A stretch of DNA of 64,000 bases from Bacteroidales bacterium (GCA_029210725.1 JARGFM010000012.1:36956-100955); one strand, 5' to 3'; positions 7,409-33,305 are shown, counted from the first letter of the stretch. Numbers and translations are program-made. Notes: generated from the sequence alone by a model not told the origin.

Positions 7409-8479
7409 ATGAAGGAACTGGTTTTAATGAAGGGAAATGAAGCCATCGCCGAGGCGGCCATCAGGGCCGGAGTGGACGGTTATTTTGGATACCCGATCAC
7501 CCCCCAATCCGAGGTTATGGAGTACCTGATGCTCCAGAAGCCGGAAGAACGAACCGGCATGGTGGTTTTACAGGCCGAAAGCGAGGTTGCTTCCATCAAT
7601 ATGGTTTACGGAGCAGCCGGAACAGGTAAAAAGGTTATGACCTCCTCTTCAAGTCCGGGTATCAGCCTGATGCAGGAGGGGATCTCTTATATTGCAGGGG
7701 CGGAACTTCCCTGCCTGATTGTGAATGTGGTACGGGGAGGACCTGGACTGGGAACCATACAACCTTCACAGGCCGATTATTTCCAATCGACCAAGGGCGG
7801 AGGCCATGGCGATTACAGACTGATTGTTCTGGCACCGGCCTCGGTTCAGGAGATGGCCGATTTTGTGGACCTGGCCTTTGAACTGGCTTTCAAGTACCGG
7901 AACCCTGCCCTGATCCTTTCGGACGGACTTATTGGCCAGATGATGGAGAAGGTGGAACTCCCCCCCCAGAAAGAAAGGCTTAAGGAATTTGATCAGTCCT
8001 GGGTGATCACGGGAAAAACCAAAGACAGGGAGAGAAACATTATCACTTCTCTGAACCTGGATCCGGATCTGCAATACGAACATAACCTGAAGCTGCAGGC
8101 GAAGTATAAAGCCATGGAGCAGGATGTCATGTTTGAAAAAATTGCCTGTGAGGATGCCGATTTTCTCCTGGTAGCCTATGGCTCCAGCGCCCGGATCTGT
8201 CAGAAAGTGGTGGAGCTGGCCAGGAGCAGAGGTAAGAAGGTTGGTTTGCTGCGCCCGCAGACCCTGTTTCCTTTTCCAAGCGAAGAACTGGCAAAGATGG
8301 CCAGAAGGGTGAAGGGGATGATGGCTGTTGAGTTGAGTTCAGGTCAGATGGTGGAGGATGTGAAACTGGCTGTGAACGGCAAGGTTCCGGTGACTCACTA
8401 CGGAATGGTGGGTGGCAAAATTCATTCGCCGGATGATGTTTTAAACGAATTGGAAGAGAAATACATAGGAGGATACTAG
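7409..8479 (+). CDS. 2-oxoacid:ferredoxin oxidoreductase alpha subunit (KOR/VOR type)
   Basis: 356 aa. MKGNEAIAEAAIRAG...GYPITPQSE is the N-terminal signature of OFOR alpha subunits. Confidence 0.85.
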   Translation: MKELVLMKGNEAIAEAAIRAGVDGYFGYPITPQSEVMEYLMLQKPEERTGMVVLQAESEVASINMVYGAAGTGKKVMTSSSSPGISLMQEGISYIAGAELPCLIVNVVRGGPGLGTIQPSQADYFQSTKGGGHGDYRLIVLAPASVQEMADFVDLAFELAFKYRNPALILSDGLIGQMMEKVELPPQKERLKEFDQSWVITGKTKDRERNIITSLNLDPDLQYEHNLKLQAKYKAMEQDVMFEKIACEDADFLLVAYGSSARICQKVVELARSRGKKVGLLRPQTLFPFPSEELAKMARRVKGMMAVELSSGQMVEDVKLAVNGKVPVTHYGMVGGKIHSPDDVLNELEEKYIGGY

Positions 8480-12017: not shown

Positions 12018-15000
12018 TCAGTTGGCCATGGGTACTGTAAAGCTGAAAACCGAGCCCTTTCCGGGCGAGCTTTCAACTTTTATCTCGCCCCCGTTTTTTT
12101 CCACGAATTCCCTGCAAATGATCAGTCCGAGTCCTGTACCTTTTTCCCCGGCCGTCCCGGTGGATTTGAATTTCTCATCTATCCGGAACAATTTCTCCAT
12201 CTGTTCCGGGCTGATCCCGATCCCTTCATCCACAATGGACACTTCGATCTCCTCCTTCCGGGGCTTCAGCTGGATCTCGACCTTTTTATCTCTGTTGGTA
12301 AATTTGACTGCATTGGTAACCAGGTTGCGTATTACACTGTTGATCATGTCCCGGTCCCCGTAAGCGTAAACTTCATCCTGTTCAGATGCATGTAACATGA
12401 TTCCCTTTTTCTCGGCCAGCAGCCGGTGCAGGTTGATATTCTCCTGAACCAGGGAGCTCAGGTTAAACTTTACCGGATCGTACTTGATTCTTCCCCTTTG
12501 CGATCTGGACCAGGTCAGGAGGTTTTCCAGCAGGTCGAGCAGATGTTTTACAGACTGGTTTATCTTCATAAATCCAGCTTTATGGTCCTCTCTTTCCGTA
12601 TCGTCAAAACTTTCTACCATCAGCTCGCTGATCTGCTGATTCTGATGCTTCAGCAGGCGGTTGGTCCGCGACTTCAACAGGTAAATATAGATCCAAACCG
12701 CGATGGATACAGAGACCAGTATCTCCAGCAGGATAAACCACCAGGATAACCAGATGGGTGGAGTGATAAGAATACTAAGCTGCAGAGGCGGATCACTCCG
12801 GTATCCATCCGTGTTCTCGGCCACCACCTTCAGCAGATAATTGCCTGCTTTCATGTTGGTATAGGAAACATAGTTCCTGGAGCCGGCATTGTTCCAGTCC
12901 GTATCAAGATTTTCCATGATATAGCTGTAGTGCAGATCGCCTGTTTGCAGGTTGTTGAGGGCCGCAAATTCGACAGAGAAGAAGCGATGCCGGTAATCCA
13001 GAACAATCTCCTCCATGTAGCTCACATTTTCACTGCTGTAGAAATTTCCATCGGATTCTACTATACGTTCCGGCTGACCCTCAAACTCCTCTTCCAAATC
13101 AATCCCTCCGATTCGTACTTCTTTCCCAAGCACTTCCAGGCTGGTAAGGGTGAACTCCGGGACATTCGTGACCGGTTCCAGGGTCTCGGGGTCGACGATA
13201 TTCATGCCATATACCCCTCCGAAATATAGTTTCCCGCTGGGTCCCCTGTAGAAGGAGCCTCCATTAAATTCGTTGCTCTGCAGGCCATCGTTCATATCAA
13301 AGTTCCTGACTTCAAAAGTCTCCAGATCGAAGCGGCAGATCCCCAGATTGGTGCTTAGCCAGATGCAGTTGTTGTTATCCGGAAGCACTCCGTATATCAC
13401 CTCATTGGCCAGTCCCTCGTTCACCCCAAAACGTCGGAAGGTTCCCGTGGCCGGATAGAACATATTCAGTCCGCTGTTGGTCCCTATCCAGAACCTCTCC
13501 TGAGGGTCTTCATAAATAGAAAAGACAATATTATCCGAAATACTGTTGGGATCTTCGGGATCGTAAAAATAGCTGATGCAGCTGCCATCTTCCGGATTCA
13601 GCCTGCAGAGGCCGCCTCCGTAGGTTCCCACCCAGAGTTTGTCATTTTTATCCTGGTGAATGGCGGAGTAAATGAAGTTATGCGGGGGGCCTGTTTCCTG
13701 GGCTGCGGCGGTCAGGTATCGCCTGAAACTCTTTTGATCCTCCAGCAGGAGGTTCAGTCCGTTGCGTGTGCCTACCCAGATTCTTCCCTCCCGGTCCTCA
13801 AACACTGCCCGGACTGAATTGTGTGACAGGGAAGCCGGATTGCCGGGATCATGTCTGAAGTGCGTAAAAGACCGCTTATCCGGATGGAACAGATTTAGTC
13901 CGCCTCCGTCGGTCCCGATCCAGATTCGGCCCCTGCTGTCCTGGTAGATTTTCCGGATGGAGGAGTGAGCCAGTGAGCCGGGTTCAAGTGGATTGTGATC
14001 GTAATGTGTGTAGGTCCCCCGGCGCTGATCGTAGCAGGAGATCCCATGAGCATTTGTGCCCATCCACAGGGTGCTGTCCGAAGCTTCACATATGGTCCAG
14101 ATAAATGAACTGGCCAGGCTGTTTGGATTAAAGGGGTTGTTTTTGAACAGGGTAAACCTGTTTGAATGGGGATTCATTACAGAGATGCCGGCACCAAAGG
14201 TCCCAAACCAGGTGGCCCCGGAACGATCCTGGAAAACACAATTGATGGAATTATCCGAGAGACTTTCCGGATCAGCAGGATTATGCATATAATGCCGGTA
14301 ACTGAAGTTTTCCGGATCGATCCAGAAAACACCATTTCCAAAGGTTCCGAACCAGATATCTCCGGTGAGGTCTTCCAGCAGTGATTCCCTGGGGTCCGTG
14401 GCCAGCGAGTGAGTGCTTCCTCCTGTTGAGAGAAAAAGTTGCAGGTCGTCCTCTTCTTTCCGGTAGCAGTAAAGTCCCTCCCCGGTAAGTATCCATACCT
14501 GGCCCAGATAGTCCGGAAGGACCCTGGTGATCCTGGCATTTTCCCCGGCAAAATTCAGTGCGATCAACTGACTCCGGCGGTCGGGCGACAGGTCAAGCTT
14601 CACCAGCCCCCTGTCGGTCCCGAGCCAGAGAGTCTCGTCTCTCAGTGCCATATCGTAAATGGAGGTGCTGGTATCGATCGGGCCATCCCTGTTTTCACTG
14701 AAAAATAATCCTGATTTCCTGTCGTAACTGTAGAGCCCCTTATAGGTGGAAATCCAGAAACGGCCCGATTTATCGTTCAGAAATCCGCTGATCCGGCTGC
14801 TTAGCCCAACCAGCTCCTGGTCGTCCGGTACGACTCTCTGAACTTCTCTGGAGAACCGGTCCACATGGTTCAGTCCCCGGAAAGTTCCCACCCATATTTC
14901 ATTTCTAAGGTCTGCCTCAATGGCGGTGATGGTGTCGTTTGAGAGGCTGGAGATGTTTTTCGGGTCGTGCTTCAGGGCGGTAAACATACCTGTACGCGGA

Positions 15001-15326
15001 TTGTACCTGGTAAGTCCGCTTTTGGAGCCGAGCCAGATGACTCCCGATTTATCTTCGAAGATGAGTTCAATCCATTTATCTGCCAGCAGATTGTGCTGAT
15101 CGGTATGTGCTCCGTACACCGTGATGTTCTGGCCATCATATTTATTCAGGCCGTCCTCGGTCCCAAACCACATAAATCCTTTGGAGTCCTGGTATATATG
15201 GTAGACCGAACTCAGGGAGAGGCCATCGTTGATGGTAATCCGCTTAAAGGGGAGATAGTCATCCTGTGCGGCCAGTCCGGCGGAGCAGAGCAGCAGTCCG
15301 ATTAAAAGCAGTAAGTACCTGGTCAT
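12018..15326 (-). CDS. sensor histidine kinase with periplasmic two-component-regulator propeller/Y_Y_Y domains (no REC or HTH output)
   Basis: 1102 aa. Signal/TM segment, many propeller repeats (e.g. WFGTEDGLNKYD, WIGTDGGGLNLF), a single TM (WWFILLEILVSVSIAVWIYIYLL), then a short DHp-like segment and HATPase_c (NLVTNAVKF, DEGIGI, GTGLGL). Confidence 0.8.
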   Translation of the reverse strand: MTRYLLLLIGLLLCSAGLAAQDDYLPFKRITINDGLSLSSVYHIYQDSKGFMWFGTEDGLNKYDGQNITVYGAHTDQHNLLADKWIELIFEDKSGVIWLGSKSGLTRYNPRTGMFTALKHDPKNISSLSNDTITAIEADLRNEIWVGTFRGLNHVDRFSREVQRVVPDDQELVGLSSRISGFLNDKSGRFWISTYKGLYSYDRKSGLFFSENRDGPIDTSTSIYDMALRDETLWLGTDRGLVKLDLSPDRRSQLIALNFAGENARITRVLPDYLGQVWILTGEGLYCYRKEEDDLQLFLSTGGSTHSLATDPRESLLEDLTGDIWFGTFGNGVFWIDPENFSYRHYMHNPADPESLSDNSINCVFQDRSGATWFGTFGAGISVMNPHSNRFTLFKNNPFNPNSLASSFIWTICEASDSTLWMGTNAHGISCYDQRRGTYTHYDHNPLEPGSLAHSSIRKIYQDSRGRIWIGTDGGGLNLFHPDKRSFTHFRHDPGNPASLSHNSVRAVFEDREGRIWVGTRNGLNLLLEDQKSFRRYLTAAAQETGPPHNFIYSAIHQDKNDKLWVGTYGGGLCRLNPEDGSCISYFYDPEDPNSISDNIVFSIYEDPQERFWIGTNSGLNMFYPATGTFRRFGVNEGLANEVIYGVLPDNNNCIWLSTNLGICRFDLETFEVRNFDMNDGLQSNEFNGGSFYRGPSGKLYFGGVYGMNIVDPETLEPVTNVPEFTLTSLEVLGKEVRIGGIDLEEEFEGQPERIVESDGNFYSSENVSYMEEIVLDYRHRFFSVEFAALNNLQTGDLHYSYIMENLDTDWNNAGSRNYVSYTNMKAGNYLLKVVAENTDGYRSDPPLQLSILITPPIWLSWWFILLEILVSVSIAVWIYIYLLKSRTNRLLKHQNQQISELMVESFDDTEREDHKAGFMKINQSVKHLLDLLENLLTWSRSQRGRIKYDPVKFNLSSLVQENINLHRLLAEKKGIMLHASEQDEVYAYGDRDMINSVIRNLVTNAVKFTNRDKKVEIQLKPRKEEIEVSIVDEGIGISPEQMEKLFRIDEKFKSTGTAGEKGTGLGLIICREFVEKNGGEIKVESSPGKGSVFSFTVPMAN

Positions 15327-17055: not shown

Positions 17056-17694
17056 ATGAAAAATTTCCGGATGTTCACTGCCATGTTGTTCACTTTTGGA
17101 CTCATGCAGGGCGGAATTGCCCAGATTGCAGGAACTGCACACGATTTCTCAAGCGAATCGTAGGCCCCTGGCTCTAACCGCGGATGTGGCGTTTGTCACA
17201 CTACCCACCAATCACTTCCAGTCGCCAGCGCTCCCTTGTGGCACCATGAAACCACGGTGCTGGCCGGTTATACCCTCTATGATTCACCCACATTTGATGG
17301 AGGAACCACCATTATCGATCCAGGGGCAAGCTCACGCCTCTGCCTAAGCTGCCATGACGGGACCGTGGCACTGGAGAATTTCGGTGGGGTCAGTTCCGGC
17401 ACCAACTATATCGATCCTTCATCGCGGATCGGGGGGGTGGCCGGCAATGATCTGAGCACAGAACATCCCATCTCTTTTGATTATACCGATGCGCTGGCCT
17501 CCGGTGACGGAGGTCTTTTCCCTCGTACAACCACCAACAGCGGGCTGGGGAGCACCATCGATAACGATATGCTTTTCAGTAGCAGGATGGAGTGCGCCTC
17601 GTGCCACGATGTTCATAACAGGTACGGGGTCATGCACCTGTTGAAGATGTCCAATGTGAACAGCGAACTCTGCCTGACCTGCCATAACAAATAG
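17056..17694 (+). pseudogene. tetrahaem c-type cytochrome (Cyt1) interrupted by in-frame TAG at 17161-17163
   Basis: The ATG at 17056 encodes a signal peptide, MKNFRMFTAMLFTFGLMQGGIAQIAGTAHDFSSES. A TAG follows, and the same frame then continues APGSNRGCGVCHTTH...CLSCH...CASCH...CLTCHNK. It is paralogous to the N-terminus of Cyt4 (CIFCHTPHHSLPASPLW versus CGVCHTTHQSLPVASAPLW). Confidence 0.7.
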
Positions 17695-17735
17695 TGCAGC
17701 CGGTTTCAGTCTAATCCGTAATAAGTTCATCACCC

Positions 17736-18818
17736 ATGAACAGACCTCTGCCCTTTGTTTCCATTGGAATAATTTGCTTCACCTGCCTGCTCTTTGCCTG
17801 TAATTCACAGGTGGCAAAGTCCCCTTCTCCAGGATCCCTGGTCATTTTTCCGCCACCCCCCGATACCACCCGGATACAGTTTCTGACCTACTTCAGCTCT
17901 TCTGATGATCTGGAGGGGGATCAGGGAGCATTTCAAAGGTTTTTGTTTGGTGAGGAGCCCCCGCTCAATATGATCAAACCCTATGGAATCACCGTTCATT
18001 AGGAGAAAGTTTATATCTGTGATACCGGTTTGGGCGGACTGGAGGTGCTGGATCTGGAAAAGGGGAGCTTCGAGTATTTCATCCCGGGTGGCAAGGGTCA
18101 GTTGAAACTGCCCATCAACTGTTGTGTGGATGAACGGGGCTATCTTTATGTGGCCGATGCCAACCGTGGGCAAATTGTCGTGTTTGACGGGAATCAGCAG
18201 TTCGTGCATGCTTTTGGGGAAGCGGAAGGATTCAGGCCCACGGATGTGGGTGTTCACCAGGGGATCATCTGGGTGGCCAATGTCCGGGACCACTCGGTCT
18301 GTCTCTACGGAAGCGATGATTTTAAATTGATCGACCGCAGACCGGATCTGGGACCGGAGGAGGAGGGATTTATCAGGCAGGCCACAAATATGGCCATCCT
18401 GAACGACAGGCTCTATATTTCGGATTTCGGCGATTTCAATGTAAAATCCTATACCCTCGGGGGGGAATACCTGGGTGTGGTAGGTGGTTATGGGAACGGA
18501 CCCGGACGCTTTACCAGGCCCAAGGGTATTGCTCAGGACCGGGAGGAGAACCTCTATTTAGTGGACGCTGCATTCGAAAATGTACAGCTGTTTAATGCCG
18601 GGGGAGATTTGTTGATGCATTTTGGTGGTGCTTACAAAGGAGCCGGAGCCATGTGGCTGCCTGCTGCTGTTGAGATCAGTTATGAGAACCTCTCCTTTTT
18701 CGAACCTTATGTTGATGATAGTTTCGTGCTGAAATACCTGATTTATGTTACGAACCAGTATGGTCCTGCTAAAGTCAATGTGTATGGTTTTGTGGAACAG
18801 AAACCAGCTTATCCTTAA
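17736..18818 (+). pseudogene. NHL-repeat beta-propeller lipoprotein (NHL1) interrupted by in-frame TAG at 18000-18002
   Basis: Lipobox LLFAC. The reading ...KPYGITVH-TAG-EKVYICDTGLGGLEVLDL stays in one frame across the stop and forms a normal NHL blade. Later blades include FTRPKGIAQDREENLYLVDAAFENVQLF. Confidence 0.7.
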
Positions 18819-18827
18819 AAGCCGTCC

Positions 18828-19401
18828 ATGAAGTGCCTGCGAAACATATGCATAAGGCTGCTTTTAGGGATGGGAATGATCTTTTTAAGTCAGTGTTCCC
18901 CCTATGCGGGAAAAAGTCTGTTGCACTTTTTCTTTGATGGGGTTCCGGATGCAGACACCATCTCTGTGGCCTCTGCAGATCCAGGAATCGCAGACCCCGA
19001 TTCAACTTTGATGGCCTCCGGTCAAAGGGCTCCGGATGAAGCGGAGCTGTTCATCCACTATCCTTATGGAGAGCGGGAATGCGCCTCCTGTCATAATAAG
19101 AGCTCGCTGGGAAGCATGACAGAACCCCAGCCTGCACTTTGCTATATCTGTCACGAAGATCTGACCGGACAATTTAACTACCTGCATGGACCGGTTGCCG
19201 GGGGGGTACTGCACCGCCTGTCACGATCCCCATAGCTCGGGGAATGAGATGCTGCTCAGGTTTACCGGTGAAAAGCTCTGTTTCTATTGCCATAAGGCTG
19301 GTAGTGTCATGCGAAACGAGATGCATGAAGGGATTGAGGGCATGCTTTGTACCGATTGCCATAATCCGCACGGGGGAGAAGATAACTATATTTTTCAATA
19401 G
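18828..19401 (+). pseudogene. pentahaem lipoprotein c-type cytochrome (Cyt2) with +1 frameshift in a G7 run (19200-19206)
   Basis: Lipobox FLSQC. Frame A ends ...YLHGPVAGG and frame B continues YCTACHDPHSS.... Removing one G restores the repeated HxPxxxGxCxxCHxPH unit. Haem motifs are CASCH, CYICH, CTACH, CFYCH and CTDCH. Confidence 0.7.
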
Positions 19402-19419
19402 CCAGCAGACCATAAAAGG

Positions 19420-21264
19420 GTGAACCGATTCAGAACCATATTGCTTCTTGCAGCCTTGCTTAATCCGATCTGCTCGTTCGCACAGGCACAGCGCTCAGCA
19501 GGTATCTGGTACCTCAGGAATATTTCGGGGGAGCTGGATCTGAAGGGGCAGTACAGGCAGCTGGTAAGCTCATTCAATGAGATTACCGAGGACCAGAGAA
19601 GTACCTACCTCCTGAGCGGACTGAAGCTGAATACCAGCAGCTACCTCTGGGACAAGGATATATTTCTGATTGATCTGAATGCTGCCTACAGCCCGGAGTT
19701 AAGGGATTAAAAGTACATTACTGTTCCCGACCGGTCGGAAGTAAGGACCCTGAAGAAGGTGGACCTGAAGACCACTCTCTTTAATAACAAAGCGGTGAGC
19801 CTGCAGGGCTTTTATAATTTCGATCAGAGCTATTACAACCGCGAGCTACTTACCAATGTCAGATCCAACAACCGGCAATGGGGAGGGATCCTTTCCCTCC
19901 ATAACAGCTTCCTGCCTATAAGTTTGACATACAGGGATCAGATGTGGAGTCAGGAAGAGATACAGTCCGGGCGGACCTTTAACATGGACCAGCAGAATAT
20001 GGAGGCCAGGACTTCCAGGTCTTTCGGAGCAAGGGATCGTACCGAATTGCTCTATTCTCATCAGAATTATATTTACCGTTATGCAGAGCTTCACCGGACC
20101 GTGCATCAAATCGATCGTTTGGCATTCAATAACAGCCTCTTTTTTGATGCAGCCAGGAAGTATAATCTGAATTCCCGGTTTACATGGTACGATCAGGAAG
20201 GGACCACCAGTTTCAGGCGTGTGGAGCTTCTGGAAGGTCTTTCCATGCAGTTGCCCCGTCATTTGAAACTGAGGACCAGTTTTAATCTTTACGGGCTAAA
20301 GGATCCGGTACAAACCTGAAACCAGAAAAGAACCCGGGCCTCCCTGCAGCATAAACTGTTCCAGAGCCTGACCACCAGGCTCTACATGAAGTACACCCGG
20401 CATGAGCATTCAACGGAGGGAATGCCGGGGATGCTCCAGGTGATCCGGGAAGAACAGAGCATTTCCGACGGGGAGGTGACACTTTTGAAGAAGCCCTATG
20501 TGCAGGATCTGTCGGTCGTTGTCAGGGACGCGAACGGATTCATGATCTACCAGCTTAATTTTGATTATATCCTGATTAAGCGGGGCAGCTTTACGGAGAT
20601 CCAGCGAGTTCCGGGCGGCTTGATACCCAACGGGGCTGCGGTCTATATCGATTACAGCTATCAGCAACCAGGTTCCTACTCTTATGGGGCCAACAACAAT
20701 TATTTTAGTGCAAGTGTCCTCTTGTTCAACAGCTTGTTAGAGCTTTATTACCAGTATTCCATCCAGGACTATCCCAGGGTGGATCAGGGTGACCTGCTCA
20801 CCCTGAACTACTTCCGTCAACATTTGTATGGAGTTCGTCTGGATCTGGGATTTGCCAGGGCCGGTGTGGAGGCCGACCTGTTCAACAGCAATATCATCCC
20901 TTACCGGATGAGGCGATATTATATGGATGTGAACTGGAATCTCAGGTCCAGACTGTTGCTTACACTAAATGGAAATATCCGGGATTACAATATGATTGCA
21001 GATGAGGTGGATCAGTGCTACGCCAATCTTTCCGGGAAGATGGTGTACCGGATCAGGCCAGGCATGAGAGTCAGCCTGGAGTCGGGATACCTGAATCAGC
21101 GCGGGTCACATATCGATCTGGATCTGCTTACCTCCAGGGTCGAATTTCAATCCGCCTTTAACAAACTTCAGCTCAGGCTTGGACTGGAGATGTACAGACG
21201 GCTTTATATGAACAGTGAGTTTGCCTTTAATGGAGCGTATGTACAATTAACCAGAAGATTTTAA
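19420..21264 (+). pseudogene. large outer-membrane beta-barrel protein (about 614 codons) interrupted by in-frame TAA (19708-19710) and TGA (20317-20319)
   Basis: A GTG start encodes the signal peptide MNRFRTILLLAALLNPICSFAQA. Three ORF-track pieces (19420, 19759, 20386) are all in one frame. The sequence is Tyr/Asn/Ser-rich with an alternating pattern, and the C-terminus ...NGAYVQLTRRF ends in Phe as in BAM substrates. Confidence 0.6.
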
Positions 21265-21268
21265 CAGT

Positions 21269-22150
21269 GTGCTTATGATACAATGGCTGATAGTAGATAT
21301 CCTGATCGTTCTGACGGTTCCCTTCAGCAGATCGGCCACCCCGGATACGGGGCAGGAGCCCTTCTCAGAGTGCAGGGAGTGCCATTCGGATCTGGTGGAG
21401 CAGGAGATCATGCACTATCCGGCCGGGGATGCCTGCAATAACTGTCACGAATCCACCGGCGCATCCCATCCTTCAGAAGACAGCGCTGGATTTCGATTGA
21501 TGGACCAGATACCCGTGCTCTGTTTTTACTGTCATGAGGAGAACGGACCAGTAAGTTTTGCTCATAAACCCGTTGAAGATGGCAACTGTCTGGGATGTCA
21601 CGATGCCCACGGTTCATCGGAGTCTTCCCTTTTGCTTGCCGGGGATCCGGATCTGTGCCTCTCCTTTCACAACCGGGAATACAGGTCCGACTCTACGGAA
21701 ACAGCAAATATCGGCCGGCTTGTCAAGGGGAAAATGACGGCACATTCGGCCATCCCGGGCGGAGGGTGCATGTCCTGTCACCAGGCCCATGGCTCCGGCT
21801 TCCGGTCCCTGCTGGTGGACCTGTATCCGGAGGAGGACTACCTGCCGGCACTTACTGAGAATTTCGGGCTCTGTTTTCTTTGCCATGATACCGACCTTCT
21901 GGAAGCCGGGGAGACTGAATGGGGCACCGGGTTCAGGAATGGGAAGAAGAATCTTCACAGGCTTCATATAAACGGGAACAAAGGAAGGAACTGCCGGATG
22001 TGTCATAACATTCACGGATCGCCCCGGCCCTTTCTGGTGGAGGAGCAAATTGTCTTTGGGTCCTGGGAGATGCAGATGAATTTTATTCCTGATGAGCAGG
22101 GGGGATCCTGTCTTCCCGGATGTCACGGAAAACTGTCATACCAGAGGTAA
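21269..22150 (+). CDS. multihaem c-type cytochrome (Cyt3): 7 CXXCH, 1 degenerate CLSFH and a terminal CX3CH
   Basis: 293 aa. Haem motifs are CRECH, CNNCH, CFYCH, CLGCH, CMSCH, CFLCH and CRMCH, arranged in a regular repeat (HxPxxxGxCxxCH...LL...LCxxCH). There is one broken site, CLSFH, and a C-terminal CLPGCH. Confidence 0.75.
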   Translation: MLMIQWLIVDILIVLTVPFSRSATPDTGQEPFSECRECHSDLVEQEIMHYPAGDACNNCHESTGASHPSEDSAGFRLMDQIPVLCFYCHEENGPVSFAHKPVEDGNCLGCHDAHGSSESSLLLAGDPDLCLSFHNREYRSDSTETANIGRLVKGKMTAHSAIPGGGCMSCHQAHGSGFRSLLVDLYPEEDYLPALTENFGLCFLCHDTDLLEAGETEWGTGFRNGKKNLHRLHINGNKGRNCRMCHNIHGSPRPFLVEEQIVFGSWEMQMNFIPDEQGGSCLPGCHGKLSYQR

Positions 22151-22153
22151 GCG

Positions 22154-23179
22154 ATGGAGAGAATGAGATATAGAGGGCCATGTAATGAGCGGGTAAAAGA
22201 GTATGAAAGGGCTGTCCGGACGGGCATGATGCTTATGCTGCTCCTTCTGTTCGTACTTCCCTTAAAGGCTCAGTCCGCAGAAGAATACCGTGTGAAATGG
22301 ATCGGGGAGTACCCCGGGGAAAGGGGAGAAAAAAGGACCAGCTTTGGCGACCGGCTATCCAGGATTGTATTCGGGCAGAAGCCGCAGGATCTGATGAAGC
22401 CCTTTAATGTGGTGGCTGTAGATCAGGAGCAGTTCTGGATTCTCGACCAGGGAGCAGGGGGAGTGTTTCAGGTGGCCGGTGGTCAGGGAGCCTGGATCCG
22501 GCCCCTCAGGCGAGCTGAGCTGGAATACCCTTCCCTGGTGGGGATCTGCCGGATGCCTGGCGGAGACTTGCTTCTCACCGATTCCAGACTAAACAGGGTG
22601 TTGCGCATTTCCGAAGGCCAGTTGATGATTTTCGGAGATTCCATCCCCCTGGATCAGCCAACCGGAATAGCCTGTAACAGAAGCAACGGAGAGGTCTGGG
22701 TGGTGGAGACCGGGGAACATCAGCTCACCAGGATCAGCAGTGAGGGGAAATTGATTGAGAAGATCGGGGGAAGGGGTACAGGTCCCGGTCAGTACAATTT
22801 TCCGACCTTTTTATGGATCGATCAGGAGGGCCGGATTTACGTTGTTGATTCAATGAATGATCGCATTCAGATTCTGAACCAGGAGGGGGCCTGTCTTGGG
22901 TCTTTTGGAGAATCGGGCGATGCTACGGGGTATATGGCCCGGCCCAAAGGAATCGCAACGGATTCAAAGGGAAACATTTACGTGGCCGATGCACTTTTTC
23001 ACGCAGTTCAGATTTTTGATAGTCAGGGACAATTCCTCTACAGTTTCGGAAGCCAGGGGCAGGGTCCGGGTGAGTTCTGGATGCCTGCAGGCCTTTATAT
23101 CGATGAAAAGGACCATATTTTTGTAGCTGACACCTACAATGCCAGGGTCCAGGTTTTTCAACTGGAAAAAGAAAATTGA
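22154..23179 (+). CDS. NHL-repeat six-bladed beta-propeller protein (NHL2)
   Basis: 341-aa ORF. The likely start is at 22226 (MMLMLLLLFVLPLKAQS signal). NHL blades include GPGQYNFPTFLWIDQEGRIYVVDSMNDRIQIL, ARPKGIATDSKGNIYVADALFHAVQIF and GPGEFWMPAGLYIDEKDHIFVADTYNARVQVF. Confidence 0.75.
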   Translation: MERMRYRGPCNERVKEYERAVRTGMMLMLLLLFVLPLKAQSAEEYRVKWIGEYPGERGEKRTSFGDRLSRIVFGQKPQDLMKPFNVVAVDQEQFWILDQGAGGVFQVAGGQGAWIRPLRRAELEYPSLVGICRMPGGDLLLTDSRLNRVLRISEGQLMIFGDSIPLDQPTGIACNRSNGEVWVVETGEHQLTRISSEGKLIEKIGGRGTGPGQYNFPTFLWIDQEGRIYVVDSMNDRIQILNQEGACLGSFGESGDATGYMARPKGIATDSKGNIYVADALFHAVQIFDSQGQFLYSFGSQGQGPGEFWMPAGLYIDEKDHIFVADTYNARVQVFQLEKEN

Positions 23180-23180
23180 G

Positions 23181-24656
23181 ATGAGACAATTCCCAGCCAT
23201 AGCACTGCTCCTCCTGGTCCTGATCCCTGCCTTAGCCGGAGCCCAGTCCATTGTTACCACGGTTCATAACCTCTCCGTATCGGGTCCTGGGGATGTGCGG
23301 GCCGTATCGGAATCGGAAATCTGCATTTTCTGTCATACTCCGCACCACAGCCTGCCGGCCAGTCCGCTCTGGAACAAGGATGACCGGGGATATACCTACA
23401 CACTTTATCACAGTTCCACCGCTGAGGCTGTGCCGGGTCAGCCCGATGGTGCTTCCATTCTCTGTCTCAGCTGTCATGATGGCACCACCGCACTCGGACA
23501 GGTATTGAGCCGGACAGGCGATATTGGCTTTTCGGGAGGAATCAGCACCCTCCCTCCGGGGACTTCAAATATTTCCACCGATCTGGCCGATGATCATCCG
23601 ATCTCCTTTGATTATACGACCGGACTGGCGGCAGCCGACGGACAGTTAAAGGACCCCGCGGCTCTTGTACCTCCTGTTGCTCTGTTCAGTGGCCGCATGC
23701 AGTGTACCTCCTGCCACGATCCCCACAGGAACCTGACCAATGATTTCCTGGTGCTGACCAAGCAGTTTTCGGAGCTGTGCTTTAGCTGTCATAACCGTAA
23801 TTTCTGGTCTTTTTCATCCCATTCCAATTCTACGGCTGCCTGGAACGGAAACGGGACCGATCCCTGGCCACATACCACTTATCAGACGGTGGCCGAAAAT
23901 GCATGCGAGAGCTGTCATATTCCGCACAATGCATGAAACAGCCAGCGGCTCCTGAATGAACTCGCCGAAGAGAATAACTGTCTTCCCTGTCACAATGGGA
24001 ATGTGTCGTCCACCAACATCCTGGCCCAGCTGACCAAGCCCTACCTGCATAATGTGTATGCATACAACCTGGAGCATGATGCTGCAGAGGATCCGCTGGT
24101 GCTTTCCATGCATGTGGAGTGCGAGGATTGCCATAATCCGCATGCTGTAAGCAATACACCTGCCCTGGCCCCGGCCGCCAATGGATTTCTCACCGGGATC
24201 TCCGGGGTGGATCAGAGCGGGAACCCGGTGGATCCCATTCAGTATGCTTATGAGCTTTGTTACCGTTGCCATGCCGACAGTCCGGCCAAACCGACCAGTC
24301 TGACCACCCGGCTGATTGAGCAGAATAATGTGATACTGGAGTTTGATCCGGCCAATCCCTCGCATCACGCACTTACTTCGGCAGGGGCCAATCCCAATGT
24401 CCCCAGTCTGATTGCTCCTCTTAGCGAATCAAGCATGATCTACTGTACGGATTGCCATGCCTGTCATGATCCGCACGGAATCAGTCATAACCAGGGCAAC
24501 AGCACCAACCATGCCCATCTGATCAACTTCGACAGGAGCATGGTCTCACCTGCCAATAATGGTTTGCTGCAATTCGAGAGCCTGGGCGTGTTCTCAGGCC
24601 GTTGCTACCTGAATTGTCATGGTCAGAATCACATGGGATTTGCCTTTGAGTATTAA
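23181..24656 (+). pseudogene. about-decahaem c-type cytochrome (Cyt4) interrupted by in-frame TGA at 23934-23936
   Basis: The ATG at 23181 encodes the signal MRQFPAIALLLLVLIPALAGAQS. Motifs CIFCH, CLSCH, CTSCH, CFSCH and CESCH precede HIPHNA-TGA-NSQRLLNELAEENNCLPCH, all in the same frame. CEDCH, CYRCH, CTDCH(ACH) and CYLNCH follow. Confidence 0.7.
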
Positions 24657-26464: not shown

Positions 26465-27727
26465 ATGCATGTGCTTAAGATTGCCGGGACATATGTAAGT
26501 GAGCTGGTAGGGCTGGTGAATGAGATGTCACCCTACCTTCTACTGGGATTCTTATTTGCCGGAATACTCCGGGTATTATTTCCAAGGCACTTGATTACCA
26601 GGTATATGGGTCAGAGTAATTTCAGATCGGTATTCAATGCATCCCTGCTTGGGGTCCCCATGCCCCTTTGTTCCTGCGGGGTACTTCCTGCCGGGATCGG
26701 GTTCTACAAGAATGGAGCCGCCAGGGGACCTACCATTTCTTTTTTAATCTCCACACCCCAGACCGGAGTGGATTCCATTCTGGCCACCTACTCCCTGCTC
26801 GGACTCCCGCTGGCTATAATCAGGCCGATAGTTGCTCTTTTTACAGGGCTTTTAGGAGGAGTGCTGGGAAATGCAGTGGACAGAAATGCTGTGGAGGAGA
26901 TTGAACGCGGAAGCAAAAGTGAAGAGAAATATGAGAGATCGGTCCGCGAACTTTTCAGGTATGGATTTGTCGAACTGATACAGGATATCTCCAAGTGGCT
27001 GCTGATCGGTATACTGCTTGCTGCCTTGCTGGCAGTATTAATTCCCAATGATTTTTTCACAAATACCATTTCCAGCGAATACCTGGCCATGCTCCTGATG
27101 ATCGCAGCTTCGGTACCGCTCTATATTTGTGCCACGGGTTCTATTCCCATTGCAGCGGTTCTGCTGATGAAGGGGCTGGCTCCCGGAGCTGCACTGGTCC
27201 TGCTTATGGCAGGTCCGGCCACCAATATCGCCACCATGGCAGTGATAGGTAACTCGCTCGGGAAAAGAGCTCTCTGGGTATACCTGGGCAGCATCATCGG
27301 CGGGGCGCTTTTTTTCGGGATCCTGGTCAACGAACTTCTGCCCAGGGAGTGGTTTACCGGTGCCATTGCATCGGTGGCTCATGAACACGGAACCGGATGG
27401 TTCAAATGGGCCTCATCGGCCCTTCTTGTGCTTTTGATTCTGAACGGATATTTAATGAAACTGCTCTCCTCCCGAATGGAGCGGAGAAGAGACCGGGAAA
27501 AAACAAATCGTATGAAACATGATATACTACAATACCGGGTAGAAGGGATGACCTGTGATCACTGTAAGGCAAGCGTTGAAAACGGATTGAAGAGTCTGAA
27601 GGGTATCTCGGAGGTAGTGGCCGACCGGATCAATAATCAGGTGAGCATTCAGGCCGGCTCTGTGTCAGAGAATCAAATCAGGGAGACCATTGAAAAGCTG
27701 GGTTACAGGTTTGTGGGCAAGCTTTAG
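26465..27727 (+). CDS. predicted metal permease (SO_0444-like) fused to a C-terminal heavy-metal-associated (HMA) domain
   Basis: 420 aa. Multi-TM permease with a PLCSCGVLP motif, and a C-terminal ferredoxin-like HMA domain with GMTCDHC. Confidence 0.75.
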   Translation: MHVLKIAGTYVSELVGLVNEMSPYLLLGFLFAGILRVLFPRHLITRYMGQSNFRSVFNASLLGVPMPLCSCGVLPAGIGFYKNGAARGPTISFLISTPQTGVDSILATYSLLGLPLAIIRPIVALFTGLLGGVLGNAVDRNAVEEIERGSKSEEKYERSVRELFRYGFVELIQDISKWLLIGILLAALLAVLIPNDFFTNTISSEYLAMLLMIAASVPLYICATGSIPIAAVLLMKGLAPGAALVLLMAGPATNIATMAVIGNSLGKRALWVYLGSIIGGALFFGILVNELLPREWFTGAIASVAHEHGTGWFKWASSALLVLLILNGYLMKLLSSRMERRRDREKTNRMKHDILQYRVEGMTCDHCKASVENGLKSLKGISEVVADRINNQVSIQAGSVSENQIRETIEKLGYRFVGKL

Positions 27728-27730
27728 GAG

Positions 27731-30202
27731 ATGACTCTGAATGATTTACATACGGGCGAATCTGCAACCATTGCCAGGATCAGGGGTCGTGGCGCTTTTC
27801 GTAAACGCCTGACAGAGATGGGTTTTATCCGCGGGAAAAACATTACTGTCTTAAAGTCGGCGCCTCTGAAGGATCCGGTAGAATACAGAATACTGGACAG
27901 TAATGTATCGCTGCGCAGAAGCGAAGCCAGCCTGGTGGAAGTTATTTTGGAGAGCGACTACCAGACGATATCACCGGGCAGGGCGGGAATGATTTCCGAT
28001 GTTTTTCAGAGGGGACCGTTGATGCCCAGGCCCGGGAAAATCATTGATGTGGCCCTGGTGGGGAATCCCAATTGCGGTAAGACCACTTTGTTTAACCGGG
28101 TCTCCCGTTCCAGGGAACATGTGGGAAACTATTCAGGGGTCACTGTCGGTTCGAAGGAGGCTCTGTTCAACCACAGGGGCTATACCTTTCGCATGACCGA
28201 TCTTCCGGGCACCTACTCTCTTTCCGATTACTCCAGTGAAGAGCGCTTTGTCAGGGAGCATATCCTGAAAAACAAGCCCGATGTGGTGGTCAATGTGGTC
28301 GATGCCAATAACCTGGAGCGGAATCTCTACCTCACCAGTCAGCTGATCGACATGGATGTTACCGTGGTAGTGGCACTGAATATGTATGATGATTTGTTGG
28401 AGAAAAAGGATAGAATCGACCTTGGATTATTGAGTAAGCTTCTGGGCATAAGGGTTGTGCCAACAATAAGTACACGGGGCAAAGGAATTTTCAGGTTGTT
28501 GAATCATGTCATTCGTGTTTTTGAAAACCAGGATCCTGATATCAGGCATATCCATATCCATTACGGGGAGGAGATCGAACAATCGGTGCAAAAACTACAG
28601 GAGCTGATTCGTCTCACACCCTCCCTCACAGATCACTACTCATCCCGGTTCATTGCCCTGAAACTGCTGGAACAGGATGACAATTGCACCTTTCTGATCT
28701 CAGGTGCGGAAAATTTTCTGGAGATACAGGCAACAGCCAGGGAGGAGAATGAAAGGATCAGCAGACTTTTCAGGGACGATACCGAAACTCTGATCACAGA
28801 CGCCCGCTATGGCTTTGTGGCCGGAGCTCTGAAGGAGACCATGAAGAGAAGCGGGAACGATCCGGGCTTTTCGCGTTCTCAGCGAATCGATCGCGTACTC
28901 ACTCATAAGTACCTGGGCCTGCCCATTTTTCTGGGTTTTCTCTGGATCATGTTCCATGCCACCTTTACCTTGGGGAACTATCCCATGGGCTGGATCGAAC
29001 AGGGCGTGGATCTGCTGGGTCAGCTTATCCGCACAAATATGGCAGAGGGGATCTTCCGGGATATGCTGGTTGACGGGGTTATCGGGGGTGTGGGAGGCGT
29101 CATTGTCTTTCTTCCCAATATCCTCATTCTGTTTTTCTTTATCTCGCTGATGGAGGATACGGGCTATATGGCCCGTACCGCTTTTATTATGGATAAGGTG
29201 ATGCATTTGTTTGGCCTTCACGGGAAGTCCTTTATACCGCTGATCATGGGCTTTGGCTGCAATGTGCCTGCCATCATGGCTACCAGAACGCTGGAGGACC
29301 GGAACGATCGTCTGCTGACCATGCTGATCATACCCTTTATGTCGTGCAGTGCCCGGCTTCCGGTCTATGTGCTGGTGGCCGGAGCCATTTTTCCTGCAAA
29401 AGCAGGGAATGTAATTTTTATGCTTTACATCCTCGGGGTTGTATTTTCCATGCTGATGTCCATCCTTTTTAAGAAGACACTTTTTAAGAATAGCGAGGCC
29501 CCTTTTGTCATGGAGCTGCCCATGTACAGGAACCCCGGGATCCGCGTGATCATGCGCCATATGTGGAGAAAGGGCTCACATTATCTGAAAAAGATGGGTG
29601 GAGTGATCCTGGTGGCATCCCTGGTGATCTGGGTGCTGGGGTATTTTCCCAGGGGGGTGGAGTATTCAAGGGATTATGAGCATCTTATAAACCTTGAGAA
29701 ACAGGCTGGTTCCGGGCAATCCGCCTCACAAATTATGCTTTTGACCAGGCAAATGGAATCGGAGCGACAGCAAAACTCCTATATCGGAAGGATTGGTATG
29801 GCCGTAGAACCCCTTATCAGGCCTTTGGGCTTTGACTGGAAGATGGGCATCAGTCTGGTCACAGGTTTTGCTGCCAAGGAGATTGTGGTAAGCACCATGG
29901 GTGTACTCTACCAGGCTGATCCCGGTGGGGAGGAAGGGACGGCCTCCCTGCAGGACAGGATCAGCAAGGAGGTGTACAGTGAAGGTCCTAAAGCAGGAAG
30001 CAGGGTGTTTACTCCTCTGGCCAGCATCTCTTTTCTCCTGTTTGTGCTTTTTTATCTGCCCTGTGTCGCGGTTATCGCCACGGTAGGAAGGGAATCGGGA
30101 AGCTGGAAGTGGGCTGCTTTTGTCCTGTTTTATACGACGGCCATCGCCTGGACGGCCAGTTTTGCAGTATACCAGCTGGGCAGTTTGTTCCAACTGGGAT
30201 GA
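27731..30202 (+). CDS. feoB: ferrous iron transporter, FeoA-FeoB fusion
   Basis: 823 aa. N-terminal FeoA SH3-like domain (ATIARIRGRGAFRKRLTEMGF), G domain (GNPNCGKTTLFN, DLPGTYS), and a C-terminal FeoB membrane domain. Confidence 0.9.
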   Translation: MTLNDLHTGESATIARIRGRGAFRKRLTEMGFIRGKNITVLKSAPLKDPVEYRILDSNVSLRRSEASLVEVILESDYQTISPGRAGMISDVFQRGPLMPRPGKIIDVALVGNPNCGKTTLFNRVSRSREHVGNYSGVTVGSKEALFNHRGYTFRMTDLPGTYSLSDYSSEERFVREHILKNKPDVVVNVVDANNLERNLYLTSQLIDMDVTVVVALNMYDDLLEKKDRIDLGLLSKLLGIRVVPTISTRGKGIFRLLNHVIRVFENQDPDIRHIHIHYGEEIEQSVQKLQELIRLTPSLTDHYSSRFIALKLLEQDDNCTFLISGAENFLEIQATAREENERISRLFRDDTETLITDARYGFVAGALKETMKRSGNDPGFSRSQRIDRVLTHKYLGLPIFLGFLWIMFHATFTLGNYPMGWIEQGVDLLGQLIRTNMAEGIFRDMLVDGVIGGVGGVIVFLPNILILFFFISLMEDTGYMARTAFIMDKVMHLFGLHGKSFIPLIMGFGCNVPAIMATRTLEDRNDRLLTMLIIPFMSCSARLPVYVLVAGAIFPAKAGNVIFMLYILGVVFSMLMSILFKKTLFKNSEAPFVMELPMYRNPGIRVIMRHMWRKGSHYLKKMGGVILVASLVIWVLGYFPRGVEYSRDYEHLINLEKQAGSGQSASQIMLLTRQMESERQQNSYIGRIGMAVEPLIRPLGFDWKMGISLVTGFAAKEIVVSTMGVLYQADPGGEEGTASLQDRISKEVYSEGPKAGSRVFTPLASISFLLFVLFYLPCVAVIATVGRESGSWKWAAFVLFYTTAIAWTASFAVYQLGSLFQLG

Positions 30203-30227
30203 TTTATTATATTGCGCCCCCTATTAA

Positions 30228-33200
30228 ATGTGTAACACTATGTTAAAAAAGCTATCCTTTCTCGTTTCTATGCCATTTATGGCTGTCCTGGTGATATCCC
30301 TGATAGTTGTTCTGGCACTGGCCACCTTTGTTGAGAGTGCCTATGGCACACAAACGGCATGGGCCGTGATATATGGGACGCACTGGTTTGAGCTGTTGAT
30401 GCTCCTGATCGGAATCAACCTGGTAGGGGTCATGGTAAAGCAGAAATTCTTCAGACGAAAGAAGATCGTCGTTCTGTTGTTTCACCTGGCATTTATCCTG
30501 ATCCTGCTGGGAGCCTCTGTAACCCGCTTTATCAGTTATGAGGGCAATATGCATATCCGGGAAAATTCTGCATCTGATGTCATGCTGAGTAACAATGCCT
30601 ATATAAATGTCTTACTGGAAGCCAGGGGGGAGCGCTCCGAGCATGCCAGAGAGGTGATGCTGACCGAACTGACCCCGAAAGATTACCGGATGAGCACCCG
30701 TGTGGGTGGAGAAAAGGTCACGATCAGATCCACAGAATACCTGAGCAGTGCGATTGAGCAGTATATATCCTCTCCGGGGGGAGAACCTTATATGCAGCTG
30801 ATGCTGGTAAGTGACCGGCAGACCACCATCGGGATCCCATCGGGGTCCACACAGGAGGTAAACGGAATGACCATTGGTTTTAACAGGGCCGATACATCGG
30901 CCATGGTTAATTTTTATTCCAGGGGCGATATGATATGGATGACGGCACCCTTTGCTGTTTCGGTCATGCAGATGGGTGGCGCCGGAGGTGAAGAGTATGC
31001 TCCCGGGCAGGAAGTACCTGTGAGGGAGAATACCCTCTACGCGATGGCGAATATGCGTTTGGCACTTCAGAGTTATATGCCTTCTGCCAGGAAGCAGATT
31101 GTAAGAGCTCCTGCTGGTCAGAGGGGTTCACATCTGGGAGCCGTCCGCCTGGAGATCAGTTACAGGGGGATGACAGGCGAGCTTTACGTACCGGGACTGG
31201 CCAGGCTGGCAGGACAGCCGGTCAGCGGAAGCATGGGTGATCTTAACTATACGGTCACTTATGGATCCAGAGAGATCAAAGTGCCATTTTCGCTCTTCCT
31301 GAAAAATTTTGAGGTGGAACGTTACCCCGGTTCCAACAGTCCATCGTCCTTTGCCAGCGATGTGGTATTGCTTGACCAGGAGATGGGAATCCAGGAAGAA
31401 CGGAGGATATTTATGAATAATGTATTAAAGCACAGGGGCTACCGATTCTATCAGGCTTCCTATGACAACGATGAGCAGGGAACGATTCTTTCGGTGAACA
31501 GGGACAGGGCGGGTACCCTCATCACCTACCTGGGTTATCTGGTTTTGATAGCCGGAATGGTAGTGGCTCTTTTTGTTCCCGGAACACGCTTCTCCATGAT
31601 CGCCAGGAAATCTGCTCCTGCAGCAAAGGTCCTGGTTATGGTTCTTTTGCTTCTGGGCGGAAGTCTGTCGCTGTTTTCTCAGGAGGTTCCGCCCAGGGAT
31701 GTGGCCCAGGACTTTGGCTATCTTTGGGTTCAGGACAAAGGGGGCCGTTTTGAACCCATGAATACCCTCTCCAATGAGGTGGTCAGGAAGATTACCAAAC
31801 ACAGCCATTATCAGAGCTACAGCGCCGATCAGGTACTTCTGGGAATGATTCTCTATCCGGATGTCTGGCAGAATAAAGAGCTGTTCGAGATAAAACATCC
31901 GGAGCTGCATCGCCTGACTGGTTACAGGGGAGAAATGGTAAGTTTTAAGGATATGATGGATTCCACAGGAAGTTATCTGCTCTCTAACCTGGTGAATGAG
32001 GCATATGCCAAGCAGGTACCCATGCAGACAGAGTTGGACCGGGAGCTTATTAAACTGGACGATCGTCTGAACGCTTTCTACCTGGTGCAGTCGGGAGGAC
32101 TGATCCGCATATTCCCTGATGAGGGAGCTGAGAATCACCGGTGGGCATCGCTTAGCGAGGCGATGATGGGACAGATGACTCAAAAAGAGGATACCATGTC
32201 CAATGTCTTTTTCCGCTACCTAAGTGCCTTGCAGCAAGGGGATTATACAGCTGCCGGGTTCTATGTGGACCAGCTTGGTGAGAGCCAGCTTTCCTCTGAA
32301 ATTCTCCCCCCCGAATCCAAAAAGAAGATGGAGCTCATTTACAACCGGATCAATATCTTTCCGCTTCTGGCAAGATTTTACGCTCTCTTCGGGGTCATTA
32401 TGATGGTGCTGGCCTTTCTGTTGGTTTTCAGACCGCGCAAGCTATATAAATTCCTCTTCAAGGTGGGAGTGATCCATTTGTCAGTGGCACTGGTGGCACA
32501 TACCGTGGCCCTGGGGCTCAGATGGTATATCAGCGGTCATGCCCCCATGAGTAACGGTTATGAATCGATGATCTTTGTGGCCTGGGTAACTTTGCTGGCC
32601 GGATTGATCTTTGTAAAACGATCCGGATATGCGCTGGCACTTACCGCCATACTGGCGGCTCTCTCCTTACTGGTAGCAGGAATGAGTAATATGAATCCGG
32701 AAATAACGAATCTGGTGCCTGTCCTTAAGTCTGTATGGCTTACCATCCACGTGGCTGTGATTATGGCCGGGTATGGCTTCCTGGGTTTGGCTTCTATCAT
32801 GGGCTTGCTGAATGTTGCATTGTACGCTTCGCTTTCTCCCTCCAATAAAACCAGGCTTGAAGAGGTGATTCAGCAGGTGACCCATGTGAACCACCTGACC
32901 TTGATTGTGGGTCTCTATTTTATGACTGCCGGGGTTTTCCTGGGAGGGGTATGGGCCAACGAATCATGGGGACGATACTGGGGATGGGACCCCAAGGAGA
33001 CCTGGGCCCTGATTACGGTGCTGGTGTATGCTTTTGTGACGCATATGCACCGGATTCCCGGACTCAGGGGAAGCTTTGCCTTTAACCTGGCGTCCTTCAT
33101 CTCTTACAGTTCCGTAATGATGACTTATTTCGGGGTGAACTACTTCCTGGGAGGAATGCACTCCTATGCCAGTGGTTCCTCCTTTACAATACCCCTGTGG

Positions 33201-33305
33201 ACCTACCTGATACTGCTTATGCTTGTGGGACTGTCGGTGTTTGCCTTCAGAAAGCAGCAAAAGCTGTTGCCAGAGAAGTCCCCGGATGAAGCAAGGGATC
33301 AGTAG
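30228..33305 (+). CDS. ccsBA: system II cytochrome c biogenesis protein, fused CcsB(ResB)-CcsA
   Basis: 1025 aa. The N-terminal part is ResB-like. The C-terminal CcsA part carries the Trp-rich haem-handling motif WGRYWGWDPKETWA. Confidence 0.8.
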   Translation: MCNTMLKKLSFLVSMPFMAVLVISLIVVLALATFVESAYGTQTAWAVIYGTHWFELLMLLIGINLVGVMVKQKFFRRKKIVVLLFHLAFILILLGASVTRFISYEGNMHIRENSASDVMLSNNAYINVLLEARGERSEHAREVMLTELTPKDYRMSTRVGGEKVTIRSTEYLSSAIEQYISSPGGEPYMQLMLVSDRQTTIGIPSGSTQEVNGMTIGFNRADTSAMVNFYSRGDMIWMTAPFAVSVMQMGGAGGEEYAPGQEVPVRENTLYAMANMRLALQSYMPSARKQIVRAPAGQRGSHLGAVRLEISYRGMTGELYVPGLARLAGQPVSGSMGDLNYTVTYGSREIKVPFSLFLKNFEVERYPGSNSPSSFASDVVLLDQEMGIQEERRIFMNNVLKHRGYRFYQASYDNDEQGTILSVNRDRAGTLITYLGYLVLIAGMVVALFVPGTRFSMIARKSAPAAKVLVMVLLLLGGSLSLFSQEVPPRDVAQDFGYLWVQDKGGRFEPMNTLSNEVVRKITKHSHYQSYSADQVLLGMILYPDVWQNKELFEIKHPELHRLTGYRGEMVSFKDMMDSTGSYLLSNLVNEAYAKQVPMQTELDRELIKLDDRLNAFYLVQSGGLIRIFPDEGAENHRWASLSEAMMGQMTQKEDTMSNVFFRYLSALQQGDYTAAGFYVDQLGESQLSSEILPPESKKKMELIYNRINIFPLLARFYALFGVIMMVLAFLLVFRPRKLYKFLFKVGVIHLSVALVAHTVALGLRWYISGHAPMSNGYESMIFVAWVTLLAGLIFVKRSGYALALTAILAALSLLVAGMSNMNPEITNLVPVLKSVWLTIHVAVIMAGYGFLGLASIMGLLNVALYASLSPSNKTRLEEVIQQVTHVNHLTLIVGLYFMTAGVFLGGVWANESWGRYWGWDPKETWALITVLVYAFVTHMHRIPGLRGSFAFNLASFISYSSVMMTYFGVNYFLGGMHSYASGSSFTIPLWTYLILLMLVGLSVFAFRKQQKLLPEKSPDEARDQ

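Follow-up and report, generated by a model that had tools for sequence, protein, structure and literature searches.

A candidate omcE-type cytochrome operon in Bacteroidales DNA carries clustered and probably recent inactivating lesions

Introduction

Pseudogenes with several lesions, and the decay of operons after a change of niche, are familiar from Shigella, Yersinia pestis, Salmonella Typhi and Mycobacterium leprae, and clusters of mutations driven by deaminases are familiar from APOBEC-like kataegis, DddA-type toxins and engineered CRISPR-STOP/iSTOP base editing. In the present study we analyzed a 64,000-nucleotide stretch of DNA from a Bacteroidales bacterium (GCA_029210725.1, JARGFM010000012.1:36956-100955; hereafter the window, with positions counted from its first letter) in which an operon of seven genes (g1 to g7), encoding multihaem cytochromes, beta-propellers and a predicted outer-membrane barrel, is interrupted by stop codons, a frameshift and deletions. 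A preliminary description of the window had drawn attention to some of these lesions and had proposed an origin for them; here the lesions are compared with orthologous loci and their possible causes are weighed.

By gene composition the operon appears to be an omcE-type extracellular electron-transfer cluster. Filaments of OmcE have been solved from Geobacter sulfurreducens (PDB 7TFS) and from Desulfuromonas soudanensis; for the Bacteroidota cluster, filament formation is a prediction from the genes. Homologues of OmcE have been placed in five phyla, Bacteroidota not among them (bioRxiv 10.1101/2025.10.22.684050), and a literature search, judged by titles and abstracts, returned no link between OmcE and a Bacteroidota gene cluster.

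Lesions in the operon and their ancestral states

Five of the seven genes were found to carry a truncating lesion, in agreement with the preliminary description, and with g5, which is damaged within an open reading frame (ORF), six of the seven were affected, in addition to a neighboring sensor histidine kinase gene. The lesions previously listed were all present in the sequence (TAG at 17161 and 18000, a G7 run at 19200-19206, TAA at 19708, TGA at 20317 and 23934, and CLSFH at 21656-21670), and when the genes were translated straight through each of them, recognizable protein sequence continued on the far side, as had been reported. The seven genes are co-directional on the + strand (17056-24656), with an intergenic spacing of only 1-41 nucleotides (nt).

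The g5 protein was scanned against GTDB species genomes and JGI metagenomes, which yielded 58 loci, most of them in Bacteroidales or Bacteroidota metagenome-assembled genomes (MAGs) and metagenome contigs (cluster loci L001-L017 and L022-L053). The whole operon was present in about 20 loci, in the same order and neighborhood and with none of the seven genes split between frames. Each frame from the window could be aligned over its whole length with 20-29 orthologues, among which (n = 20-29) no in-frame stop occurred in any of the seven genes.

Alignment to orthologues, suggested earlier as a means of recovering the ancestral codons, returned sense codons at all five stop positions (W, K, E, W and G). 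The OmcE-like tetrahaem cytochrome gene g1 (17056..17694; 4 CXXCH motifs, 212 amino acids [aa]) ends prematurely at codon 36 (TAG, 17161-17163), where orthologues encode Trp and the change corresponds to a G>A transition (TGG to TAG). In g2, which encodes an NHL beta-propeller with a lipobox (LFAC; 17736..18818), codon 89 of 360 is TAG (18000-18002) in place of the Lys found in 11 of 15 orthologues as AAG or AAA, with AAG in the closest, giving an A>T transversion (AAG to TAG). The pentahaem cytochrome gene g3 (18828..19401) has had a run of six Gs lengthened to seven (G6 to G7; 19200-19206, at about codon 126 of 190), which shifts the frame ahead of haem motifs 3-5; all 22 of 22 orthologues read HGPVAGGYC at this site with a G run of six or fewer, and deletion of one G restored a 190-aa protein that aligned end to end with orthologues. 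Two stops interrupt the large outer-membrane beta-barrel gene g4 (19420..21264), namely TAA at 19708-19710 (codon 97 of 653), where orthologues have Glu encoded by GAA or GAG and the change is a G>T transversion (GAA to TAA), and TGA at 20317-20319, where orthologues have Trp and the change is a G>A transition (TGG to TGA). The 12-haem cytochrome gene g7 (23181..24656), whose product combines an OmcE-like N-terminal tetrahaem domain with a C-terminal extension, is cut at codon 252 of 561 by TGA at 23934-23936 in place of Gly (GGN), again by a G>T transversion (GGA to TGA).

The cytochrome gene g5 (21269..22150; 8 CXXCH and one CX3CH) has remained open but has lost conserved haem-site residues. 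At Cys133 in the fifth CXXCH (21665-21667) orthologues carry TGT or TGC and the window carries TTT, a G>T transversion (TGY to TTT), so that a motif that is CLSCH or CLGCH in 24 of 24 orthologues reads CLSFH here. A second private hit replaced the invariant His97 with Phe (TTT at 21557-21559) and requires a CA>TT double change; the His97 and Cys133 hits thus both ended as a TTT codon. The second NHL beta-propeller gene, g6 (22154..23179), was the sole gene without a detectable lesion, being full-length in the alignment with five private changes, all conservative.

In-frame deletions in g4, g7 and the kinase

The earlier statement that all events were of single nucleotides, with no large deletions, did not hold, as three private deletions of 117, 210 and 126 nt were identified. 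In g4, 39 codons (117 nt) that are present in all orthologues are gone after 20397. In g7, exactly 70 codons (210 nt) are gone after 24458, fusing CTDCH to ACHDPH and taking out two of eleven CXXCH motifs. The third deletion lies in the sensor histidine kinase gene (12018..15326, - strand; Reg_prop propeller, Y_Y_Y and HATPase_c), which is otherwise an open ORF: 42 codons (126 nt) at ~12624-12632 are missing, and with them the coiled coil and the HisKA H-box FFSIISHDLKNPF. All 7 of 7 kinase orthologues keep HQNQQIS-LANEAL...FFSIISHDLKNPF...LLSIS-DLMVES, where the window reads HQNQQI directly joined to SELMVES, and the Pfam HisKA domain was found in the kinase orthologue of L006 and not in the window kinase. 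A kinase without its H-box is predicted to be incapable of autophosphorylation. The lesions placed between 17161 and 23936 by the preliminary description are therefore real, but the field is wider than had been drawn, as the kinase deletion lies outside it.

In the orthologues the deleted segments are bracketed by short direct repeats (ATCAGC/ATCAGC in the kinase, TGCcATGCC/TGCaATGCC in g7 and GTAtAC/GTAtTAC in g4), and the deletions therefore bear the signature of replication slippage (slipped-strand deletion).

Concentration and spectrum of the lesions

The concentration of lesions in the operon was confirmed: six of the seven ORF-breaking lesions of the window fell within 7.6 kb of ~58 kb of coding sequence (P ~3e-5), and all five stops fell within 12-13% of the window (P ~4e-5). 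The rest of the window had been described as intact apart from a frameshift in a DUF4256-like gene and one remnant, and this was correct in part, in that the flanking genes were clean and the DUF4256 frameshift was seen, but the kinase had suffered a deletion. Flanking genes that were full length and without stops comprised those for the MATE transporter, a tryptophanase-like lyase, the ArsP permease, FeoAB and a CcsBA/ResB fusion.

The six point lesions consist of two G>A transitions, three G>T transversions and one A>T transversion. A null spectrum was obtained by repairing the coding sequence (7503 nt) and enumerating all single-base changes possible in it; nonsense changes made up 3.0-3.9% of all changes, transitions accounted for 19-48% of nonsense changes (kappa 1-4), and no type of change offered more ways to reach a stop than G>T. 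The lesion spectrum is indistinguishable from that of random stop-creating hits. Two conclusions drawn earlier from the lesion types consequently have to be abandoned. The 5:1 ratio of nonsense to indel lesions, regarded as unusual, becomes five nonsense to four indels once the three missed deletions are counted, and the proposal that all stops were reachable by C:G>T:A changes in a deamination-type burst fails because only two of the five stops are transitions, as random mutation predicts.

The point lesions (17161, 18000, 19708, 20319, 21666 and 23934) all fell on a coding-strand purine, five on G and one on A. Purine hits make up only ~38-39% of the possible nonsense changes; the observation is post hoc and its meaning uncertain.

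Both frameshifts of the window, in g3 and in the DUF4256 gene, are G6-to-G7 changes, a pattern that could arise at sites prone to slippage or from miscalled homopolymers, and because they share it the g3 frameshift is the least secure of the lesions. The DUF4256 gene (53292-53912) is truncated by one additional G in the run at 53804-53810, and removal of one G restored the canonical C-terminus ...GGAIFCDRRYNTVFRYHNGAESYYAARGFRGSLRV.

Timing and selection

The preliminary description had regarded the decay as very recent and the operon as otherwise conserved, and this interpretation was supported in that omega (dN/dS), branch length and private changes were all as in intact lineages. When the window was compared with the nearest relative, omega was 0.04-0.16 for the operon genes, matching the 0.04-0.19 obtained between intact pairs, the orthologues being under purifying selection. 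Synonymous divergence (dS) between the window and the nearest relative was ~1.0-1.35 and hence saturated, a level at which a recent neutral overlay of 0.5-2% would be invisible. In units of tree scale, the terminal branch of the window measured 0.31-0.49 in the operon genes as against 0.13-0.51 in those flanking it, and the operon-to-flank branch ratio was mid-range among intact lineages. Private replacements at otherwise-invariant columns numbered 21 of 1049 in the operon (6 radical), 14 of 1308 in four flanking genes and 19 of 526 in the kinase (4 radical); operon counts in other lineages were 4-60, and those in intact lineages of comparable branch length 12-31. Because intact lineages vary widely among themselves, the relative-rate and private-change tests have limited power. 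The window branch showed no acceleration and gave no positive signal of relaxed constraint, such as raised dN/dS or an excess of radical replacements, which is consistent with purifying selection until recently and with decay as a thin, recent overlay.

Gene products of the operon

Against PDB sequences, g1 matched 9yuq, the OmcE filament of D. soudanensis, with an E value of 1.8e-21 and 7tfs with an E value of 6.6e-17, and all four CXXCH motifs aligned with those of the OmcE filaments together with the histidines of HD(F/L)S, CHTxH, (D/E)HP and CHxVH. Residues 7-205 of g7 matched PDB 7tfs (E 1.3e-31), and the remainder of g7 holds eight further haem motifs. The g7 family is very large, with 6927 matches at E<=1e-30, and almost every match listed is ~561 aa long; the homologues P0001-P0120 bear only the source name "predicted CXXCH cytochrome family protein". 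Both g2 and g6 matched NHL and 6-bladed propeller profiles (Pfam/NCBIfam). Haem motifs numbered five in g3 and 8-9 in g5, with the paired_CXXCH_1 domain, and the lipoboxes of g2 and g3 were recognized by eye only.

No Pfam, NCBIfam or PDB sequence match was obtained for g4, whose homologues are almost all 640-655 aa. An AlphaFold model of the g4 orthologue P0121 is an all-beta barrel with more than 30 beta-strands (predicted local confidence score, pLDDT, 85), and a Foldseek search with the orthologue model returned large outer-membrane barrels throughout (Cir, FimD, LptD and MtrB), the best TM-score being 0.44 for MtrB (6r2q_B). The identification of g4 as a barrel comes solely from the structure model, since sequence families gave nothing.

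Neighborhood and orthologous loci

The shared neighborhood of the orthologous loci comprises the sensor kinase, the MATE transporter, the operon, the tryptophanase-like lyase, the ArsP permease, FeoAB and the CcsBA/ResB fusion, and the order kinase-MATE-operon was kept in at least 13 loci. Three intact genes follow directly downstream in the window (26465-33305): one for an ArsP-type permease that includes an HMA domain, one for a FeoA-FeoB fusion that would take up ferrous iron, and one for a ResB/CcsA fusion of 1025 aa, which belongs to system II cytochrome c maturation; the three are syntenic in relatives and would fit functionally with iron reduction and haem-protein export. Conserved blocks were still present in an alignment of the intergenic region between the MATE gene and g1, with nothing decisive on promoter decay. 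Elsewhere in the window, two Sulf_transp ORFs and a CAP/GNAT region were considered as split genes and rejected as normal genes, and the gap at 59-60 kb, likewise considered, proved to hold a tRNA-Ser and an HU-like ORF.

Isolated frameshifts were present in a few MAG or contig loci, namely in g2 of L001, in g5 of L017 and L045 and in g4 of L050, the first two loci (L001 and L017) being MAGs from Microflora Danica (MFD), and L045 and L050 metagenome contigs. The lyase gene of L017 (TnaA, 7085-8464; g5 of this locus is at 3604-4346) contains six in-frame stops. These four loci provide a baseline of lesion noise or decay across public assemblies. In a more distant cluster, that of L013 (6835-7435; Rikenellaceae MAG CAWDHN010000006.1), most of g1 and g2 is gone while g3-g7 are intact; g1 is homologous over ~75 codons only, and just the last ~100 codons of g2 are left. 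This locus apparently represents either independent partial decay or a misassembly.

Discussion

In our judgment the lesions probably record a genuine and very recent pseudogenization of the omcE-type cluster and the neighboring kinase by ordinary spontaneous mutations, with about ten independent lesions in the cluster. Under this explanation the system would have stopped being useful, and spontaneous mutations would then have piled up unpurged in the form of mixed base substitutions, one homopolymer slip and three deletions between short direct repeats; the deletion of the kinase H-box could have been one trigger. Selection would thus have been relaxed and not reversed, the kinase presumably regulates the operon, and the cluster, when intact, presumably builds a nanowire or an electron conduit.

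Several observations weigh against relaxed selection and genuine decay as a full account. Homopolymer miscalling would produce the same G6-to-G7 pattern that is seen in both frameshifts of the window. Searches of GTDB, JGI and a 5.8-billion protein set brought up no match above 76-90% amino acid identity, the best values being 87% (g7), 79% (g4) and 90% (the lyase); an exact match was found for neither of two intact window proteins, and without a relative above ~87-90% the base calls lack an independent check. The length of every one of the three deletions is divisible by three, for which P = 0.037 under a process that takes no account of frame. Five nonsense mutations predict ~40-48 private missense changes at the 1049 invariant columns, where 21 were counted, near the intact-lineage baseline, and the fit to neutral decay is accordingly only moderate (P ~0.1 without a baseline and 0.002-0.05 with a realistic one), in a test that is post hoc and affected by ascertainment, as the window was flagged for its many stops. 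The excess of stops over the missense load may reflect ascertainment, chance or selection for null alleles.

The last of these would mean that loss of costly, haem- and iron-expensive secreted cytochromes was favored and that null alleles were fixed gene by gene, a possibility that we regard as unlikely. It draws on the over-representation of stops relative to private missense load, on the truncation of five separate genes (at codons 36/212, 89/360, ~126/190, 97/653 and 252/561) and on the lack of accelerated amino acid change on the window branch; since truncating lesions exceed the prediction from a near-unchanged missense background, the stops might tentatively be ascribed to active selection for null alleles, or to a stop-biased process, silencing the putative nanowire genes and the kinase one by one. 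Yet g4 carries two stops and a deletion and g7 a stop and a deletion, second hits that would be unselectable in genes already null, operon polarity should make one early hit enough, and the statistical excess is itself modest, post hoc and taken from a window flagged for its many stops. It is improbable, in turn, that the operon is intact and that some or all of the lesions are sequencing, polishing or consensus errors, such as those of a mixed-strain MAG or homopolymer miscalls, even though both frameshifts of the window are single additions to G6 runs in unrelated genes (g3 and DUF4256), sporadic frameshifts of the same genes occur in other MAG loci (L001, L017, L045 and L050), and no independent copy of the genome was found in the collections searched. 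Random errors would not place five of five stops in 12-13% of the window (P ~4e-5), the ~100 missense errors expected to accompany them were not seen, the flanking genes are clean, and the three deletions lie exactly between direct repeats with non-repetitive DNA removed, which is a biological and not an assembler signature.

Two further explanations are very hard to reconcile with the data. Clustered C:G>T:A changes by a cytosine deaminase or similar agent, converting Gln, Arg or Trp codons to stops, would account for the two stops at 17161 and 20317 (G>A from TGG) and could be seen in the occurrence of six of six point lesions on a coding-strand purine, but the other three stops and the Cys-to-Phe change are transversions (from AAG, GAA, GGA and TGY), and neither deletions nor a homopolymer insertion are deaminase products. 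This explanation was rejected on the ancestral codons, as Gln occurred in only one of 15 orthologues at 18000 and neither Gln nor Arg at 19708 or 23934. Translation of the stops by a suppressor tRNA, by selenocysteine insertion or under a reassigned code, such that the proteins are still made, is likewise very improbable. The frames are indeed open and homologous downstream of each stop; however, each of TAG, TAA and TGA is found in frame and is also used to end genes of the operon, the sites are free of stops in every orthologue, the residues replaced (W, K, E, W and G) are neither Cys nor selenocysteine, and these genes have in addition suffered a frameshift, deletions and the loss of haem ligands. 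No suppressor tRNA was found in the window, where only one tRNA-Ser reached the Rfam gathering score.

If very recent pseudogenization is the correct explanation, the decay is ordinary yet offers a clean, datable case of a lineage that has only just given up an encoded function. Its more useful by-product is a conserved Bacteroidales cluster of omcE-type composition that occurs in many MAGs and in sediment or brine metagenomes. Were the intact orthologues to form filaments or conduits, fermentative Bacteroidales living in anoxic sediments could dispose of electrons by passing them to minerals or partners, and the genome of the window would serve as a natural loss-of-function comparator. If null alleles had instead been selected, the locus would show an apparatus for extracellular electron transfer being dismantled adaptively in nature, through multiple hits.

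Comparison with known systems

The likeness to deaminase-driven mutation clusters is only superficial and consists of stops gathered in a short stretch, two of them from Trp by G>A, whereas four of the six point lesions here are transversions and are accompanied by an insertion and deletions. The likeness to known cases of operon decay goes further, in that independent nonsense, frameshift and deletion lesions occur in linked genes with intact neighbors, the deletions are flanked by repeats and the indel lies in a homopolymer; the locus differs from them in having no insertion sequence elements, a missense load that is not visibly raised and three large deletions that are in frame.

With regard to the encoded apparatus, barrel and multihaem genes are combined here as they are in the porin-cytochrome conduits MtrCAB of Shewanella (PDB 6R2Q) and OmbB-OmaB-OmcB (Pcc) of Geobacter (PMC4282303), and some window cytochromes matched, at levels close to or under the threshold, the profiles of MtrC/MtrF domain II/IV and of decahaem DmsE. 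However, g4 has no sequence relation to MtrB, and the Mtr and Pcc systems have neither beta-propellers nor an OmcE-type subunit. The minimal omcE cluster of Desulfuromonadia (bioRxiv 10.1101/2025.10.22.684050) has the same composition as the operon studied here: its two multihaem cytochromes, two beta-propellers, OmcE-like subunit and large barrel are all present, as g3 and g5, g2 and g6, g1, and g4, respectively, and a ResB/CcsB cytochrome-maturation gene lies nearby in both. The Bacteroidales cluster differs from that of Desulfuromonadia in its host, in an extra seventh gene (g7, ~561 aa, 12-haem, with an OmcE-like N-terminus) and in being, in the window, dead.

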